From Bacteroidota bacterium (GTDB lineage Bacteria > Bacteroidota > Bacteroidia > NS11-12g > UBA955), in the NCBI GenBank assembly GCA_023957335.1, contig JAMLHC010000002.1, positions 322,809 to 386,808 on the forward strand: 64,000 nucleotides of DNA. Direction: 5' to 3'. A program made the position numbers and the translations under genes. The notes beneath the pieces are model-generated. The model saw only the letters and a list, made by a program, of their open reading frames with translations. It did not search any database and was not told the origin of the DNA. This document shows positions 58,385-64,000 of the stretch, in pieces; position 1 is the stretch's first letter; every line of letters starts with the position of its first letter.

Positions 58385-58453
58385 CTATCGAAAACGAATC
58401 AACCTTATCCAAAACATTTGGATAGGAAATACGAATATTGCACATTCGCAAAC

Positions 58454-61027
58454 ATGAAATTTTTTAATAAAACATGTATTGCATTGGCTTCTATATGTTT
58501 ACTTACCTTGTTCTCACCTCATTCAATCAAGGCACAAGCGCAAAATTCAGGAGCTATTTTTAAAGAAATTCAAAAACTCAATCAATTTGGGTCTGTGTTA
58601 TACATAGCTGCACACCCTGATGATGAGAATACACGCCTCATCAGCTATTTGTCCAAAGGAAGACAATACAGGGTGGGTTATTTATCCCTTACGCGCGGAG
58701 ATGGCGGGCAGAATCTGATAGGGACTGAACAAGGCGTAGCATTAGGGCTTATTCGAACCAATGAACTCTTGCAAGCACGTATGGTGGATGGGGCAGAACA
58801 ATTCTTTACCCGTGCCTATGATTTTGGTTACTCCAAGAATCCTGAAGAAACATTCACATTCTGGAACAAAGATTCTGTCTTGCGCGATGTGGTGTGGGTA
58901 ATTCGAAAATTCAGACCTGATGTAATCATCACCCGTTTCCCTGACACAGGCGAAGGAGGACACGGACACCATACTGCTTCTGCTATTTTAGCTAAAGAGG
59001 CATTCAGAGCCGCAGCAGACCCTAATATGTTTCCTGAACAACTCAAAGAGGTGCCGGTTTGGCAAGCAAAAAAGCTATTTTGGAACACCTTTAATTTTGG
59101 CAACAACAATACCACCTCCGAAACACAGTTCAAATTAAATGTAGGAACTTATGACCCCATACTGGGCATGAGTTATGGCGAAATTGCATCTATGAGCCGC
59201 TCCAAACACAGCAGTCAGGGATTTGGAACCCCATTAGTACGCAATCCGATTTATGAATACTTTGTAGCATGGGAAGGCAGCAAACCTCAAAATTCTTTCA
59301 TGGAAGGTATTGACACAGGCTGGACAAATGCAATCAACAATGCAGGCAAAGCAAAAATAATTACTCAAAAAATCAATAATATCATTGCCCAATATGATTT
59401 CCAAGCCCCTTACAAGTCAATACCAGCCTTGTATGCCCTGCGAAACGAGATAGAACAAAACTACGAATTAACCTCTCCCACTGTATTTTGGCTCAACCGG
59501 AAGATAGAAGCACTCAACCATATCATCAGTCAATGCGCAGGAGTATTCTGCGAAATAACCACAGACAAACAAAATCTTGTCCCCGGTCAAACAACAAAAG
59601 TTACCTTTTCTATGGTTGCACGTTTGCAACCCAAACAAAACATAGAACTTCATTTCAAATTCGGGAATCTTGATATCAAAAAAACGCTCACCGAAAACAA
59701 GTGGGATACAAGCTTTGTTTATACCATCCCAAACACCTTTTACTATGAATCTTCGCAACCTTATTGGCTGAGGAAACCCAAAAGCAAAGGACTGTTTGCA
59801 GATGTAGATTTGAGTTTGGCAGGATTGGCTAAAAATCCTGAATTGTTCAAAGCTGAGGTATCATTGAACTTTAGCAAACCTGATTTTTATATCACACAAA
59901 ACCCGACCCTAAAATATAAAACAAACGACCCTTCCAAAGGCGAGCTATATCAACCTGTTTTTATTGTTCCTCTGGCAGTTATAATGCCTGAGACAAATCG
60001 AACTTTCTTTCTGCTGAGCGAAAACAACAATCAAGCGGTTGAAAAAATCATCCACGTAAAGGTTAAGTGTTATCAAGACAATTTCAAAGGAAACTTGTTT
60101 GTTGAAGTGCCCAAAGAATGGCAATTACTAAATACTCCTGAGGATTTTAAATTAGAGTTTGGAAAAGCAGGGACAGAAAAAAATATTGAAATCAAATTAA
60201 AGCTGTTTGAAAATGCATCTGCCATTCAACAAAGCGGCAGTTATCAATCCTCCCTTTCGTATTATATCATGACAGACGGACAACAATATGATGTAACTGA
60301 AAAACGCATAACATATCCGCATATTCCAAATCAGATACTTTATTCCACAGCCCAAACCCAACTTGTCCTCTCGCCTGTCAGCCAAGAACTAGCACAAAAA
60401 ATAGGGCGTGTAGGCTACATTCCGGGAGCAGGTGACATGGTGATGGAATGTCTCAGAGAAATTGGTATTCATGTAGATGAGTTGAGTGAAAGCGATTTGA
60501 GTAACACAGCCGTATTAGGCATGTACAAAACTATCATTGTAGGCGTGAGGGCGTTCAACGTGCGTCCCGAACTGCAGACCCAATTTCCCAATCTACTGAA
60601 CTTTGTAAACAATGGCGGGCGATTGTTAGTACAATACAACACCAATAATCGTATTGCTCCCATAGATTTTAATATTGCACCTTATCCTCTCACCATTACA
60701 GCCAATCGTGTTACAGATGAAACCACCAAAATTACTTTCTTGCAACCTACACACAAATTAGTGCAACAACCGTTTAAAATTACATCTGCGGATTTTGATA
60801 ATTGGATACAAGAACGCGGAATTTATTTTGCAGGAGCACGAGACTCCCAATTTGTTTCTTTGTTTGCAATGGCAGACCCGAAAGAACAAGCGAATGATGG
60901 AGCACTTATTTATGCAGATTATGGCAAAGGCAGCTATATCTATACAGGCTTCGTATTTTTTCGAGAATTACCTGCCGGAAACCTTGGGGCATATAGGCTT
61001 TTCATCAATCTAATTTATAACCCATAG
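58454..61027 (+). CDS. PIG-L/LmbE-family deacetylase fused to a large C-terminal domain
   Basis: LYIAAHPDDENTRL...HGHHTAS LmbE zinc-deacetylase motifs after a signal peptide, followed by roughly 600 aa more. Start set at MKFFNK. Confidence 0.7.
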   Translation: MKFFNKTCIALASICLLTLFSPHSIKAQAQNSGAIFKEIQKLNQFGSVLYIAAHPDDENTRLISYLSKGRQYRVGYLSLTRGDGGQNLIGTEQGVALGLIRTNELLQARMVDGAEQFFTRAYDFGYSKNPEETFTFWNKDSVLRDVVWVIRKFRPDVIITRFPDTGEGGHGHHTASAILAKEAFRAAADPNMFPEQLKEVPVWQAKKLFWNTFNFGNNNTTSETQFKLNVGTYDPILGMSYGEIASMSRSKHSSQGFGTPLVRNPIYEYFVAWEGSKPQNSFMEGIDTGWTNAINNAGKAKIITQKINNIIAQYDFQAPYKSIPALYALRNEIEQNYELTSPTVFWLNRKIEALNHIISQCAGVFCEITTDKQNLVPGQTTKVTFSMVARLQPKQNIELHFKFGNLDIKKTLTENKWDTSFVYTIPNTFYYESSQPYWLRKPKSKGLFADVDLSLAGLAKNPELFKAEVSLNFSKPDFYITQNPTLKYKTNDPSKGELYQPVFIVPLAVIMPETNRTFFLLSENNNQAVEKIIHVKVKCYQDNFKGNLFVEVPKEWQLLNTPEDFKLEFGKAGTEKNIEIKLKLFENASAIQQSGSYQSSLSYYIMTDGQQYDVTEKRITYPHIPNQILYSTAQTQLVLSPVSQELAQKIGRVGYIPGAGDMVMECLREIGIHVDELSESDLSNTAVLGMYKTIIVGVRAFNVRPELQTQFPNLLNFVNNGGRLLVQYNTNNRIAPIDFNIAPYPLTITANRVTDETTKITFLQPTHKLVQQPFKITSADFDNWIQERGIYFAGARDSQFVSLFAMADPKEQANDGALIYADYGKGSYIYTGFVFFRELPAGNLGAYRLFINLIYNP

Positions 61028-61489
61028 AAAAATCAAAAATTGTATTTTTTCTTATTGCCAATCGCCTATATTTGCAGCCCTCAAAAAAAGCCTATCCGCA
61101 CCCATAGCTCAACCGGATAGAGCAACAGAAATAACTGAATTTTCGACAGGTGTTAGATATTGGTCGTTAAAAATCTCCCTCTTAACAACATGTTGATAAA
61201 CCCAATAGCATAAAAATACATTATCCCTTTTTGAAACAAGCAGTGGGGGAGTATTTTGCCATGTTAATAACCCTTCTTTTTATCCACAATGGCAATAATC
61301 TGTTTGGCAGTTTGGTTTTAGGGTGTTACTTAGCCCACGTCTTTTGGGGGAATTATAAGCTGCTTTTTTGTCTGTTTCAGTCTCAAATCAGTTTTTTTCT
61401 TCGTTTAGGCTAAGAGCAAAGCAGACATTTTAAAACCACAATATGGCTGAAAATATTCAATAAGTACTCACCTAAACAATCTAAGAAAT

Positions 61490-64000
61490 ATGCACTTCTT
61501 TACAGAACATACCGTACTTCCTGCTCAAAATGCTTCGGATAAATACGGTCCTGATGGGGGAACTTCTTCTGATTTATACAATATCTCCGCCCGATTTGAA
61601 TTACCGAATGGAAATACTGCAAAAGCATTTGCTTGCCAAGACGGATTAATGTTGGTGCAACAATCATCTGTAGATTCTGACTTGGTTAATGTTCTCATTA
61701 AACCTAATGAGCCACCCAAGTCTTATTTACAGGTTAAATATTACATATACAGAGGTATACTGAAAAGCAGCTTAATCAGTGGAAGTAATATTACACCCGC
61801 AGACGACAGCAACAATGAATTAATTGCAAGATTTTGGGCTGAAAACGAAAACCATCCAGACCCAAAAGCCTATTTAATAGGTTTTGGTGACAGCCTGCCG
61901 GACAGTACCGACATTGAAGATATTCTTCTATGTACCGTTTCTGGCACTGTAGAACCAATATATGTAAAGGAAGGTGAGTGGTTTGGCGATTTTGGAGGCA
62001 CACATGAAACCGAAGAGCATCCGATAGATTTTGAAGTTCTCATTGACAATGCCGAAGAAGTAATTACTACCCTCGGCTATTTAAGAAACGGCTTTTATAA
62101 TTCCAATACTTCTAAATACCAGATTAATGTTACCTCAAAAACCAACTTGGAAAAGCGCAGATTGAAAGAACAGGTATTATCTTTTCTAGACCCTGCTGCT
62201 CTGTTTGGTATGTTTTATAATGAAGGTTATGTTAATTTTACTGAATATTCAGGCTCAAAAGTGGTCAAATCAACCAATAGCAATTCAGGTTCTCCTCTAT
62301 ACCTTTACACTGTATTCCTAAACAAATTTGAAACCAAGCATACCGTTTATCTTGACATAAGAAGCGACAGGGGATTTTCTTATAATTTCTATGGCAACTA
62401 CGATGACCAGACTATCAATAACAGTAACATTAAAATAGGACTTGGTAAAGCGACAGTTACAGCCCAAAAGTACCATACAAATGATTGGCCAATAATCATT
62501 CTCTCGCAGGCTCAAGATTGGACAGGAACAAGTCCTGTACCCAATAAAAACAGAATTGGATTTCAATTGCGGCTTGATGACGTAGAACAGCCATTGATTT
62601 TTCTGGAAGACATAAGTATCAGAGACGGAAGTGCATCATCCAACTGGATAAAGAAAGACGCATTACTTCCTAAACCACTTCCTGTTACAACAGCAGACCT
62701 ATATACAAAAGAAAACAAAATTCATTTTCCCAATAAAGATTCCGGTACTACGAGGAACAATGTAGCCCGCTTCATTAAGCTATATTATTTTAGGCAAAAT
62801 CATAGCCAAACTCCATCAAGCACTGTAATGCCAAGTTCAAAGTATTTCAACAACGCTTTTATTGAGCTTGACAGCCTCATCTTAGGGACTTTTAAAAGTG
62901 AGGACATCCCCGGCACTACTGAAAACCCTATTCGTAAAAACAAAGCCATAGAATCCTGCAAAAATCATCTCATTCATCAGAAACTTAATGAGACGGACGG
63001 AACAGGGAACTTTGCCTTTTGTGCGAAATCAGGCGCATATTGGGAGCGAACGGGAGCACCAATCTTCGGAGGTGGGGAATACCCTCCTCGTGTATTGCTA
63101 TACACCACTATTTACAAAGAAGATGAGAACAATAGTGAAAAAAAATTTCTGCCAACCTATAACAGAAAATTCAATCTCCACGAAAATCCATTATTTGAGG
63201 ATTCAAAATTACGAAACAACATGGATTTAATCTGCCGAAGCTATAAGATTGATAATAACGACATTAAAATACTGGGCATTAATTGGTATAGCGAATCGGG
63301 AAGAAAAGATATCTCTAAGAATCATAAAGAAAACCTCATGCTACTGGGGCTGACCCATGAAGAACTGACCGCCATTTATGAAACGACAGGCTTGGCTTAC
63401 GATGATTTTCACAGGTATATTTACTTAGACCCCGACAGCGGCAACCCTCTTACATCCGATGCGCCTGAAAACATGCGCTATCACAAATATACAATACGCA
63501 TTCAGGGAATTGCAAGCACAACCAATGGCGGTGGAACTAACGAGATAGGAATGATTACTCCACAATTAGACGAACAGGATATTGTAGTTTATAGCCGAGA
63601 CAATCAGTTCTTTCATTCAAAAGATTTTTCAGAGCAAGAAACGGTTTCTCCAAGACAAAACCAGATTGAAATGCACATATACCACGATGGAGTTATAAAA
63701 ATTACAGATAACATAGATTTAAGCCTAGTTAGGAAAAGATTACTTTCAACCAGAGAGGCTCTAATAGATGATAATACAATTGCAAACGATCAAAGTTTAG
63801 TACAACAAATTCATTACTACTATCATACACAAGAGAATCAACATCAATCTATACATATAGCCAATTTTGATATTGTAATGGCAGACAAAATGGCAAAGAA
63901 TGGTCGAAATAATAGGTCACATATCGTGCCTGGTGGTTACGCGTTGTTAATCAACTATCAAACACCTACAATTCACAATGGCGTTGATGCTGGCAGTTCA
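61490..64000 (+). CDS. large uncharacterised protein, 5' portion only (at least 837 aa, continues past window end)
   Basis: From ATG 61490 the frame is open for 837 codons to the last base of the window. An in-frame TGA at 61448-61450 upstream bounds the ORF. Absent from the supplied ORF track because no stop occurs inside the window. Asn/Tyr/Ser-rich, no signal peptide or TM. I recognise no family motif. Confidence 0.6.
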   Translation, partial: MHFFTEHTVLPAQNASDKYGPDGGTSSDLYNISARFELPNGNTAKAFACQDGLMLVQQSSVDSDLVNVLIKPNEPPKSYLQVKYYIYRGILKSSLISGSNITPADDSNNELIARFWAENENHPDPKAYLIGFGDSLPDSTDIEDILLCTVSGTVEPIYVKEGEWFGDFGGTHETEEHPIDFEVLIDNAEEVITTLGYLRNGFYNSNTSKYQINVTSKTNLEKRRLKEQVLSFLDPAALFGMFYNEGYVNFTEYSGSKVVKSTNSNSGSPLYLYTVFLNKFETKHTVYLDIRSDRGFSYNFYGNYDDQTINNSNIKIGLGKATVTAQKYHTNDWPIIILSQAQDWTGTSPVPNKNRIGFQLRLDDVEQPLIFLEDISIRDGSASSNWIKKDALLPKPLPVTTADLYTKENKIHFPNKDSGTTRNNVARFIKLYYFRQNHSQTPSSTVMPSSKYFNNAFIELDSLILGTFKSEDIPGTTENPIRKNKAIESCKNHLIHQKLNETDGTGNFAFCAKSGAYWERTGAPIFGGGEYPPRVLLYTTIYKEDENNSEKKFLPTYNRKFNLHENPLFEDSKLRNNMDLICRSYKIDNNDIKILGINWYSESGRKDISKNHKENLMLLGLTHEELTAIYETTGLAYDDFHRYIYLDPDSGNPLTSDAPENMRYHKYTIRIQGIASTTNGGGTNEIGMITPQLDEQDIVVYSRDNQFFHSKDFSEQETVSPRQNQIEMHIYHDGVIKITDNIDLSLVRKRLLSTREALIDDNTIANDQSLVQQIHYYYHTQENQHQSIHIANFDIVMADKMAKNGRNNRSHIVPGGYALLINYQTPTIHNGVDAGSS

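Follow-up and report, generated by a model that had tools for sequence, protein, structure and literature searches.

Polymorphic toxin systems, as described by Zhang et al. 2012 (PMC3482391), join a constant N-terminus to interchangeable C-terminal toxins, occur as several loci per genome, have a co-varying immunity gene directly downstream and share their toxin modules with other carriers, all of which are also features of the protein family considered here (labelled C0), its immunity gene being a candidate one. The closest relatives of this kind in the phylum are the TANFOR-domain polymorphic toxins of Bacteroidetes, proteins that mostly have a signal peptide and are mostly nuclease-bearing (PMC7073777). 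The C0 gene reported here is situated at the very end of the window, i.e., the whole 64,000-nucleotide stretch of DNA that was analysed, and the reading that we favor, with moderate confidence, is that its open frame represents the N-terminal 80% of an interbacterial effector that is polymorphic and targets the cell envelope.

The reading frame, its surroundings and its relatives

Retranslation of the forward strand from 61490 produced 837 sense codons and zero stops, with the last codon ending at base 64000, exactly the unbroken frame of the original prediction. An in-frame stop lies 15 codons ahead of position 61490, whose ATG is the first to follow it, and because this ATG coincides with the conserved N-terminus of the C0 family, MHFF[IT][DE]H..L..Q, it is taken to be the right start. 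A complete version of the gene is present on contig L001, which has 99.5% DNA identity to window positions 61083-64000, and its product, P0001, is a protein of 1038 aa and 117.5 kDa, in keeping with the expectation that the gene would run past the window and encode more than 90 kDa. From the near-identity of L001 it follows that the frame closes ~600 nt beyond the window and is no pseudogene in the sister strain, and everything stated below about the region past base 64000, including the catalytic motifs, is taken from that contig. An AlphaFold2 model of full-length P0001 had a mean pLDDT of 88.2 and a pTM of 0.89. That the frame might be a decaying pseudogene, or open by chance, is scarcely credible: although the window end cuts the frame and leaves its own stop outside view, and although the DUF6603 partner gene on L001 is broken into 165 + 1092 aa (relatives have 1278-1297 aa), 837 codons have stayed open in 38% GC DNA, the intact 1038-aa gene differs by only 4 amino acids in 837, conservation across phyla is strong and the structure model is confident, so that for the part within the window the idea is already contradicted. 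The small ORFs at 61525-61719(-), 61791-62003(-), 62318-62566(-) and 62988-63230(+), which had been dismissed as artefacts, lie inside the frame and are best read as its shadow ORFs.

Several other properties noted from the letters alone were found to be accurate. A hydropathy scan of the product detected neither a signal peptide nor a TM segment, and, compared with 14 other genes in the window, its content of N was raised (8.5 vs 5.6%), as were those of T, D, S, Y and H, which includes all four residues (N, Y, S and T) named originally. The lack of a recognisable family was likewise borne out, as searches of Pfam, NCBIfam, PADLOC and PHROGs with the 837-aa product or full P0001 returned nothing at E ≤ 1, phmmer of P0001 against PDB sequences returned noise only and Foldseek against the PDB nothing at E ≤ 1e-3. 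A comparison of composition, also proposed originally, did not set the gene apart: neither in GC content (38.1%) nor in codon usage (r = 0.89) can it be told apart from the remainder of the window, and composition thus gives no sign of recent transfer. The features of the locus are collected in Table 1.

Table 1. Positions of features of the C0 locus within the window
Feature	Position	Strand	Basis or remark
Open-ended CDS, residues 1-837 of ~1038-aa protein (family label C0)	61490..64000	+	Stop-free frame, homologues, AF2 model
Conserved leader/promoter region	61177..61489	+	Aligns with upstream region of 81%-identical L002 homologue
Palindrome TTAACAACATGTTGATAA, candidate operator	61182..61199	.	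Inverted repeat I4, left edge of conserved leader
Conserved N-terminal "carrier" module, residues 1-715	61490..63634	+	Common to all members whatever the C-terminus
Putative LytM/M23-like beta domain, degenerate and non-catalytic, residues ~29-185	61574..62044	+	Placement inferred
Most conserved family motif YLDIRSxxGYSYNFYxNY, residues 287-304	62348..62401	+	Family alignment
Junction motif IVVYSRDNQFFHSKDF (VYSRDxxFFxSxxF), residues 698-713	63581..63628	+	Closes conserved module
Beta-rich "HIYxDG..." sub-domain, start of C-terminal toxin module (~120 residues, 716-837)	63635..64000	+	Precedes LAS domain

Upstream of the gene is a spacer (61028-61489) that had been described as 462 bp long and odd in structure, of which the length is right and the odd structure is not, as its fold z-score was -0.76 and no Rfam model matched above threshold (the sole signal, Fibrobacter-1, was sub-threshold with an E of 0.98). 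No structured RNA, tRNA (ARAGORN) or terminator was found in it, and promoter-like sites were no commoner than chance. Its right-hand 310 bp form the leader, parts of which are better conserved than coding sequence in the comparison with L002, and the counterpart there of the candidate operator is a perfect palindrome, TTATCAACATGTTGATAA. Beyond the spacer is an 869-aa protein whose PIG-L/LmbE domain is confined to residues 61-195, the last of a block that includes NuoN, a POTRA protein and an ABC-F ATPase, and the gene does therefore border on a housekeeping block, as had been proposed. The two-component module C6-C7-C4-C2, which flanks many C0 loci, is absent from this window.

The first search for homologues identified 87, and an exhaustive one (E ≤ 1e-3) at least 1359 representative clusters at 50% identity, with the core HMM matching metagenomic members at E-values of 1e-180 to 1e-222. 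Among 185,579 species genomes, a pattern search with the YLDIRSxxGYSYNFYxNY stretch located 48 C0 loci. The family is mostly found in Bacteroidota, with members also in MAGs of Acidobacteriota, Chloroflexia, Ignavibacteria and Planctomycetia, and cultured carriers include Mesonia oceanica ISS653, Adhaeribacter soli MA2, Dawidia soli PWU37, Kaistella yonginensis and Chryseobacterium proteolyticum. Individual genomes can have multiple divergent paralogous loci with differing tails (e.g., L008/L018, L025/L048 and L023/L038/L050). A phage origin was considered and rejected: the phage GenBank collection had zero C0 matches, plasmids a single weak match to a "hypothetical protein", and IMG/VR one contig, on which C0 and DUF6603 were once more together. 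Recombinase and transposase genes are present near some C0 loci.

The N-terminal module and the C-terminal modules

Column conservation and occupancy in the family alignment fall after about residue 745, and the junction alignment sets the break nearer to 715 (~700-715 in P0001). Subfamilies align up to the VYSRDxxFFxSxxF junction and from there diverge by subfamily, and three short members (650-667 aa) with no C-terminal extension stop exactly at this point. Within the YLDIRS motif, residues Y287, D289, R291, G295, S297, Y298, N299, N303 and Y304 are invariant or nearly so. Fold matches of the model included M23/LytM domains, among them the non-catalytic EnvC, DipM and SpoIIQ, and it is in the first part of the module, with a helical insert at ~92-156, that the matching domain would lie; the placement stays tentative in light of negative sequence-profile tests, in that a profile of the N-terminal 200 aa found nothing among PDB sequences and hhalign of the N-terminal profile to the LytM catalytic domain aligned 11 columns with a probability of 0.2. 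No His/Asp ligand (HxxxD/HxH) is conserved at residues 29-185, hence an M23-like domain, if there, would be degenerate. The C0 model is like M23/LytM domains in fold, and the protein is unlike them in that its N-terminal region lacks conserved ligands and sequence-profile support, and the module probably incorporates a degenerate LytM-like domain.

Past the junction, the C-terminal unit of this lineage is ~300 residues long and has a LAS-type zinc metallopeptidase at its end. Its ligands in P0001 (H935-x6-D942 and H1021-L-H1023), which fall outside the window, are invariant in 20 aligned members and have the order required of LAS metallopeptidases, H-x(3-6)-D and then H-x-H, and the modelled fold is that of a LAS enzyme, resembling MepA, VanX or hedgehog. 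The original prediction had seen no catalytic motif, a statement that stands within the window and fails for the full protein with its Hx6D...HxH module, as the catalytic part is beyond base 64000. No Pfam model matched the LAS module at E ≤ 1 (including those for Peptidase_M15, VanY and M74), and a profile of 20 C-terminal domains had zero matches to PDB sequences at E ≤ 10. Compared with known LAS peptidases, i.e., MepA (M74), VanX/VanY, the phage L-alanoyl-D-glutamate peptidases (M15) and the hedgehog N-domain, the C0 enzyme is too divergent for Pfam, NCBIfam or PDB profiles, is preceded by a dedicated beta-rich sub-domain of ~150 aa, and terminates a 1000-aa cytoplasmic protein.

By motif, the LAS module is present in 24 of 87 homologues. 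The tails of 42 aligned members also comprised alpha/beta-hydrolases (Chlorophyllase, PAF-AH, Hydrolase_4; eight members), Peptidase_C15 (three) and DUF3289 (two), and this set of at least four recognisable tail types, together with tail-less members, on a constant N-terminus is the architecture of a polymorphic toxin family. As with toxin modules elsewhere, the LAS module is shared: in a metagenome motif scan it was confirmed in 15 of 18 matches, nine of them on the C0 core and five to six on unrelated N-termini, and its other carriers have at least three unrelated N-terminal architectures (L067/L072, L070, L073 and the short L062), to which Pfam assigned nothing. Fusions with an N-terminal S8 subtilase and prodomain also exist.

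Downstream genes and the DUF6603 operon

In L001, the start of the next gene, encoding a 260-aa lipoprotein of family C3, overlaps the effector stop by 4 bp (ATGA). The identity of the next gene follows that of the tail, as C3 comes after a LAS tail in 12 of 13 loci and C8 after an alpha/beta-hydrolase tail in all eight, and there are no LAS/C8 or hydrolase/C3 cross-pairs. This co-variation of a downstream gene with the toxin domain is, on genomic evidence, what is expected of an immunity gene. C3 proteins have a lipoprotein signal peptide and Cys, one genome has three tandem copies, and from these sequence features C3 is put forward as a candidate periplasmic immunity protein. C8, which follows the lipase-type members, has no signal peptide, an unexpected location for immunity to a lipase that acts in the periplasm, and in L072 and L049 there is no small ORF between the effector-like gene and DUF6603. 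Four of the LAS modules on unrelated N-termini have a lipoprotein or signal-peptide ORF next to them, and where the LAS module is on another carrier, none of the ORFs behind it matched the C3 HMM.

The most consistent neighbour of C0 is a giant one. Of the 36 C0 loci that have at least 3 kb of downstream sequence, 31 have a DUF6603-cluster gene that begins no more than 3.5 kb downstream in the same orientation, and the LAS protein L072, whose N-terminus is different, has a DUF6603 protein directly after it (E = 2.9e-125). In this lineage, DUF6603 is followed on the same strand by a ~980-aa protein from a family of more than 2400 members with no annotated domain. The next proteins in the operons of other phyla are of ~1800 aa and ~600 aa, in neither of which did Pfam detect anything, and a relationship between the third genes C5 and C10 was undetectable. 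Some DUF6603/C10 operons, an actinobacterial example among them, lack a C0 member, and quite different genes can stand first in such operons, so that delivering toxins is not necessarily what the operon is primarily for. Operons of this type occur in Bacteroidota, Acidobacteriota and Actinobacteria, and Chloroflexota, too, have homologues of the ~1000-aa "YxFLPxLRxG" protein. One acidobacterial locus encodes a 696-aa protein ahead of DUF6603, and this protein is not a C0 relative. Nothing on DUF6603 or PF20248 was found in the literature searched. It is a tentative proposal, more doubtful than not, that the operon is an undescribed delivery machine with a core of DUF6603 and the ~1000-aa "YxFLPxLRxG" protein, and that C0 is the polymorphic cargo of this machine, addressed through its N-terminus; a conduit or container could be formed by the long beta-hairpin meander of DUF6603.

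Co-occurrence with T6SS(iii), T9SS C-terminal domains or eCIS, for which a search had been advised, was not observed on the protein or ~6-10 kb downstream, the conserved partner being DUF6603 instead. The protein has no domain of a known export route (Pfam, NCBIfam) and no signal peptide, and its neighbours are only DUF6603 and unannotated proteins. T6SS markers (MIX/FIX/RIX/WHIX, PAAR, VgrG, Hcp and adaptors) were absent from the protein and from its Pfam-annotated neighbours for ~6 kb (L001) to 10 kb (L002-L004) downstream. With regard to the T9SS, there is no Sec signal peptide and no Por_Secre_tail on the protein, which has the LAS domain as its C-terminus; separate FG-GAP proteins with a Por_Secre_tail are encoded downstream in L002 and L054. 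Pfam families of the eCIS sheath, tube, baseplate and ATPase were absent within up to 10 kb on either side of L001-L004 and L053-L055, the flanks scanned being limited in L001 to ~0.4 kb on the upstream and ~6 kb on the downstream side, and in L002-L003 to ~1.7 kb upstream. RHS or YD Pfam families were not found on C0 proteins, and a Foldseek match to TcB-TcC had an E-value above 0.5.

Interpretation and comparison with known systems

On balance, C0 is best viewed as an interbacterial effector that is exported, cleaves peptidoglycan and has an immunity protein in the periplasm, a reading somewhat likelier to be right than wrong; toxicity, export and immunity are all properties that we infer from sequence. 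The effector would be made in the cytoplasm, where its conserved N-terminal module, probably including the degenerate LytM-like domain, would dock it to a device for export or delivery. The peptidase at its C-terminus would then cleave peptide stems or cross-links of peptidoglycan in the periplasm of a neighbour cell, and the immunity lipoprotein in the periplasm of the producer would shield it and its kin. The device would not be among those known, its best candidate being the predicted co-transcribed pair of DUF6603 and the ~980-aa protein, and the delivery route may thus be the DUF6603 operon. Of the three roles guessed at originally, polymorphic toxin and secretion-system cargo fit the architecture of the family, and an anti-phage effector does not, given the lack of PADLOC matches and candidate immunities that are secreted lipoproteins.

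Lytic subunits that help a larger structure to penetrate the envelope are known, e.g., phage tail-associated lysins, the internal proteins of ejectosomes and the LytM-domain PrgK of a T4SS, and the alternative with the most to recommend it is that C0 is such an envelope-breaching accessory subunit of a DUF6603-based structure, its lytic C-terminus opening the wall or membrane of the producer or of a target. We consider this unlikely, if a serious contender. The tight linkage to DUF6603, which holds for LAS proteins with another N-terminus, is in its favor, as are the DUF6603/C10 operons with quite different first genes, the loci where no small ORF intervenes, and the fusions to S8 subtilase and prodomain at the N-terminus. 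Strict co-variation of the tail with the downstream ORF and tandem arrays of lipoproteins are, however, the signature of effectors and immunities and not of structural enzymes, tails that are colicin-M-like or lipases are killing modules rather than assembly aids, and neither the phage database nor PHROGs had a match.

An anti-phage or abortive-infection effector, in which the N-terminal module would sense infection and the variable C-terminus wreck the cell's own envelope, is improbable. Defence systems, too, typically place variable enzymatic domains on a constant, sensor-like module, C0 members are large, cytoplasmic and without known domains, and recombinase or transposase genes are close to some loci; yet PADLOC had zero families at E ≤ 1, the searches revealed no sensor domain of the ATPase, NTPase or nuclease kind, base composition is native, enzymes acting on peptidoglycan or lipid II cannot reach their substrate from the cytoplasm, and the partners are secreted lipoproteins, which would guard the periplasm from an incoming toxin. 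Still more improbable is a housekeeping role as a large LytM/LAS peptidoglycan hydrolase or regulator in the cell's own growth or division. While the fold matches to M23/LytM proteins (EnvC, DipM, SpoIIQ) and to the murein endopeptidase MepA, and the adjoining housekeeping genes, are in accord with such a role, an enzyme of this kind must act outside the cytoplasm and C0 has no signal peptide, its distribution is patchy (the 48 loci of the pattern search) with divergent paralogues per genome, its C-terminus is exchanged for lipases or colicin-M-like domains, and it has dedicated lipoprotein partners.

If the interbacterial effector reading is true, C0 would be a large antibacterial effector class, of at least the 1359 clusters given above, that is invisible to domain databases, and its constant N-terminus would be a handle for the discovery of further families of toxins and immunities, in the way that MIX, FIX, Rhs and TANFOR were. 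The locus also makes it testable whether these "dark" operons of giant proteins represent a new route of export or injection.

Against the known systems, the differences lie mainly at the N-terminus and in the partners. Judged by Pfam and NCBIfam, the N-terminal module of C0 is not TANFOR, MIX, FIX, Rhs, PAAR, LXG, MuF or another described trafficking domain, and, unlike described polymorphic toxins, C0 is linked to DUF6603 rather than to a known secretion system. Membership of the TANFOR class was excluded, as TIGR02542 was unmatched by the 837-aa product in an NCBIfam scan that had zero families at E ≤ 1; moreover, in contrast to TANFOR proteins, C0 lacks a signal peptide, and those of its tails that can be recognised are enzymes directed at the envelope. 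With the periplasmic effector-immunity pairs of the T6SS (Tae/Tse, Tle lipases, DUF3289/colicin-M-like; PMC11148199), C0 shares targets, namely peptidoglycan, lipid II and membrane lipids, and immunities (in C0, candidate ones) that are secreted or lipoproteins, and DUF3289 is itself a C0 tail. It differs from them in having no Hcp, VgrG, PAAR or adaptor on the protein or ~6-10 kb downstream (L001-L004), and in that the family extends to MAGs of four further lineages, Acidobacteriota to Planctomycetia. Lastly, the Tc (ABC) toxin complexes, as C0, have several giant signal-peptide-less proteins per operon, one of which has a hypervariable toxic C-terminus; the Rhs/YD repeat shell that precedes the variable C-terminus of TcC and Rhs toxins was not detected in C0 by Pfam.

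The Open Reading Frame and Its Full-Length Counterpart

Translation of the plus strand from the ATG at 61490 gave 837 sense codons with no stop, up to the last base of the window, as the original prediction had described, and the four small ORFs that it had dismissed as artefacts are all in the mechanical ORF list and all lie within this frame. The ATG is the first beyond an in-frame stop 15 codons upstream, and we take it as the correct start because it coincides with an N-terminus, MHFF[IT][DE]H..L..Q...FGP, that is conserved throughout the family. The public contig L001 (9788 bp), 99.5% identical to window positions 61083-64000, encodes the complete protein, P0001, of 1038 aa and 117.5 kDa, with four substitutions over the 837 shared residues. 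L001 served as the proxy for the sequence past base 64000, and everything said below of residues beyond 837 is inferred for the window's own genome; a pseudogene is scarcely credible. A comparison of composition, which had been proposed as a check, brought out no deviation: GC is 38.1% in both ORF and window, and the ORF's codon usage, set against that of 14 other genes in the window, gives r = 0.89 (those genes range among themselves from 0.71 to 0.95); the gene is therefore compositionally native. As had been claimed, no signal peptide or hydrophobic segment was found in the product; the noted richness in N, Y, S and T is real, and extends to D and H.

The gap upstream is indeed 462 bp. Its tRNA-like segment, in which neither ARAGORN nor Rfam reports a tRNA, sits just left of 61177, where DNA homology begins to L002, a contig carrying an 81%-identical homologue, and could be what an insertion or deletion left behind at a tRNA gene. 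The palindrome at the left edge of the conserved leader is perfect in L002 (TTATCAACATGTTGATAA) and is a candidate transcription-factor operator. Conservation of the leader at about 61290-61400 exceeds the 83% of the coding region; the leader as a whole matches nothing in Rfam, and its RNA is of ordinary stability (z = -0.76). In the protein encoded before the gap, the other ~670 residues match no Pfam family.

Coordinates of features in the window and at related loci
Sequence	Positions	Feature	Details
Window	58418-61027	upstream protein	869 aa; PIG-L/LmbE (GlcNAc deacetylase) match at residues 61-195 only
Window	61098-61130	GCACCCATAGCTCAACCGGATAGAGCAACAGAA	33 nt; resembles tRNA 5' acceptor stem and D-arm, remainder of tRNA missing
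Window	61177-61489	leader	~310 bp, conserved with L002
Window	61182-61199	palindrome TTAACAACATGTTGATAA	
Window	61231-61413	ORF inside leader	60 aa, probably spurious
Window	61490-64000 (+)	ORF under study	
L001		gene 1 downstream	260-aa lipoprotein; signal peptide ending LLSSC; ATG overlaps C0 stop by 4 bp
L001	4310-4807	gene 2 downstream	165 aa
L001	4862-8140	gene 3 downstream	1092-aa DUF6603 protein, E = 1e-101
L001		gene 4 downstream	at least 547 aa
L002; L003	255-1028; 241-1014	serine recombinase (Resolvase/Recombinase)	opposite strand
L002; L053; L055	9507-12449; 12028-15360; 10001-13063	third protein	~980-1000 aa
L002; L054	12452-14790; 6817-12398	FG-GAP repeat proteins	Por_Secre_tail (T9SS C-terminal sorting domain); PemK toxin and transposase genes also there in L054
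L040	4862-13996	C0 fusion	
L057	9-4219	distant C0 member	1134 aa; positions include the 269-aa downstream ORF
L067; L072	123-5805; 1-6017	LAS proteins	different, unannotated N-terminal region; 886-aa protein (L067) or DUF6603 protein (L072) directly after

A Conserved Core with Exchangeable Tails

The statement that the product has no recognisable family was borne out, in that Pfam, NCBIfam, PADLOC and PHROGs returned no match at E <= 1 for the 837-aa fragment or P0001, and a PDB sequence search with P0001 gave only noise. Word-indexed searching of proteins yielded 87 relatives, labelled "hypothetical protein" with few exceptions. When 1.84 billion cluster representatives were searched exhaustively with a profile, 1359 passed E <= 1e-3, and 998 passed E <= 1e-30. 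With each species represented by a single genome, 48 loci of this family (C0) were located, mostly in Bacteroidota (Flavobacteriia, Cytophagia, Sphingobacteriia, Chitinophagia and Bacteroidia). The remainder belong to Pyrinomonadaceae and further Acidobacteriota, to Chloroflexia, Ignavibacteria and Planctomycetia, and to a single Rhodospirillales MAG. Two or three divergent copies coexist in several genomes (L008/L018, L025/L048, L023/L038/L050). The record of a 67-kb mobilizable Chryseobacterium plasmid (L057, NZ_CP044508.1) begins with a distant member and a 269-aa ORF downstream of it, both "hypothetical protein" in RefSeq; M15 metallopeptidase and patatin-like phospholipase genes lie ~10 kb away, and its first ~21 kb yielded no DUF6603-cluster match.

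When sets of 42 and 87 members were aligned, residues 1 to ~715 of P0001, the core, proved common to all, and past the motif IVVYSRDNQFFHSKDF (residues 698-713) the members diverge by subfamily. This junction is also where three members, 650-667 aa long, terminate. Eight of the 42 have alpha/beta-hydrolase tails (Chlorophyllase, PAF-acetylhydrolase or Hydrolase_4 type), others have Peptidase_C15-like domains or DUF3289, and 24 of the 87, P0001 among them, carry the motif PSxxHxNGxAxDxxY ... HxxHLH. Across 20 aligned modules of this last type, R, S, H, N, G, A, D, Y and three H are invariant, and their Hx6D and HxH we take to be the ligand pattern of LAS zinc peptidases (cf. M15, M74 and hedgehog enzymes). 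Since DUF3289 is a colicin-M homologue, a T6SS effector acting in the periplasm (PMC11148199), all the tails to which a name can be given are envelope-directed enzymes. Fusions of 2200-3000 aa also exist (2300-3040 aa for P0182, P0186, P0205 and that of L040), in the order S8 subtilase with prodomain (fervidolysin-like in L040), ~1000 unannotated residues, C0 core and Peptidase_C15-like tail.

The AlphaFold2 model of P0001, built on the 87-sequence alignment (pLDDT 88.2, pTM 0.89), is mostly beta. Its LAS structural matches are assigned to residues ~880-1038, because the motifs and the alpha/beta pattern lie there. Matches to M23 peptidases are tentatively placed at residues ~29-185, where the blocks AKAFACQDG, LVNILIKP, VKYYIYRGIL, VKEGEWFGDF and IDFEV follow the canonical M23 order without the metal ligands; if so, this would be a degenerate LytM-like domain, the alternative site being the beta-rich sub-domain at 716-880. 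For this placement, neither a profile search of PDB sequences nor an hhalign comparison with LytM reached significance.

A metagenome collection scanned with the back-translated pattern [FY]PSxxHxNGxAxDxxY gave 18 matches, of which HMMs classified 15 as containing the LAS module, nine behind the C0 core and five or six behind unrelated N-terminal regions with no Pfam match (L062, L067/L072, L070, L073 and the fragment L069). The exchanged unit is therefore a ~300-aa module starting near "HIYxDG". Four of these alternative carriers are followed by a lipoprotein or signal-peptide ORF, in no case a detectable homologue of C3, the ORF cluster that follows LAS tails in C0 loci.

Downstream Genes and the DUF6603 Operon

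Four same-strand genes follow the C0 gene in L001, and L002 and L003 have the same order, with a fourth gene of 980 aa. The second and third of L001 together correspond to one DUF6603 gene, which is single in the close relatives P0211 and P0212 (1278-1297 aa); the split may be genuine, or may come from a frameshift or a fault in assembly. Neighbouring ORFs were called and clustered over 52 loci. Of the 36 whose sequence extends at least 3 kb downstream, 31 have a DUF6603-cluster gene (1100-2400 aa) in the same orientation that starts no more than 3.5 kb away. The small ORF between them tracks the tail: LAS tails are followed by C3 in 12 of 13 loci and alpha/beta-hydrolase tails by cluster C8 in 8 of 8, sometimes plus a secreted WG-repeat protein, and there are no cross-pairs. 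C3 proteins have lipoprotein signals, and one genome has three C3 genes in tandem.

The third protein of the operon opens with YxFLPxLRxG, then LYGPxDVxGID, and has no Pfam domain; its homologues number more than 2475 and occur in Bacteroidia, Chloroflexota, Acidobacteriota and Actinobacteria. Apart from DUF6603 itself, Pfam annotates nothing in C3, C8 or C13, in the third genes or in the long forms of the DUF6603 protein, and the searchable literature has no mention of DUF6603 or PF20248. In L053 (Acidobacteriota) and L055 (the actinobacterium Nonomuraea), the DUF6603 and YxFLPxLRxG genes are followed by unannotated ~1800- and ~600-aa proteins, and the first gene is not a C0 member. A DUF6603 protein also directly follows the LAS protein of L072 (E = 2.9e-125), so the linkage is not confined to the C0 carrier, and with the 886-aa peptidoglycan-binding-domain protein after that of L067, it seems that more than one kind of gene can come first in a DUF6603 operon.

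Other neighbours vary. A serine recombinase gene (C11) directly upstream of the closest homologues, in L002, L003 and L013, hints at operon mobility in some genomes; the window has none upstream of the ORF. FG-GAP proteins follow the ~980-aa gene in L002 and L054, two relatives from this lineage, the latter with PemK toxin and transposase genes also downstream. A four-gene module (105-aa protein, 211-aa membrane protein, 257-aa histidine kinase and LuxR-type response regulator), absent from the window, is frequently found next to the operon, facing either way (L007, L012, L023, L038, L043-L045, L048 and others) and may be its regulator.

A Putative Effector and Its Rivals

We favour, with some reserve, the reading of the C0 protein as a polymorphic effector used between bacteria and paired with an immunity protein in the periplasm; in this lineage the effector would be a peptidoglycan-cleaving zinc peptidase. 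This reading is suggested by the constant N-terminal module, fixed junction and interchangeable envelope-directed enzymes; by the tail-specific downstream gene, a secreted lipoprotein with tandem copies; and by multiple loci per genome and a toxin module common to other carriers. The tail would act as the toxin, and the adjoining lipoprotein would confer immunity in the periplasm. Against this stand C8, which has no signal peptide, the loci with no intervening small ORF, the DUF6603 operons without any C0 member, and catalytic motifs that lie outside the window. It is unlikely that the protein, instead of being a toxin itself, belongs to a DUF6603 structure as its envelope-breaching subunit; a defence effector is distinctly improbable, and a housekeeping wall enzyme more improbable still.

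The T6SS(iii), T9SS C-terminal-domain or eCIS partners that the original prediction had proposed to look for did not materialise: neither the protein nor the neighbourhoods that were sequenced show any feature of T6SS, T9SS, eCIS, Rhs or TANFOR. The natural candidate for carrying this 117-kDa protein, which has no signal peptide, out of the cell is the co-transcribed DUF6603 operon, a possible, if doubtful, new delivery route.

A polymorphic toxin with its immunity protein is a well-known kind of system. Four features appear undescribed, to judge by the searched databases and literature: the N-terminal module of ~715 aa, the partner family of lipoproteins, the LAS module, which is highly divergent and preceded by a beta-rich domain, and the near-constant link with DUF6603 and with further giant proteins that lack annotation. 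It is in the DUF6603 operon that there is a substantial chance of something categorically new.
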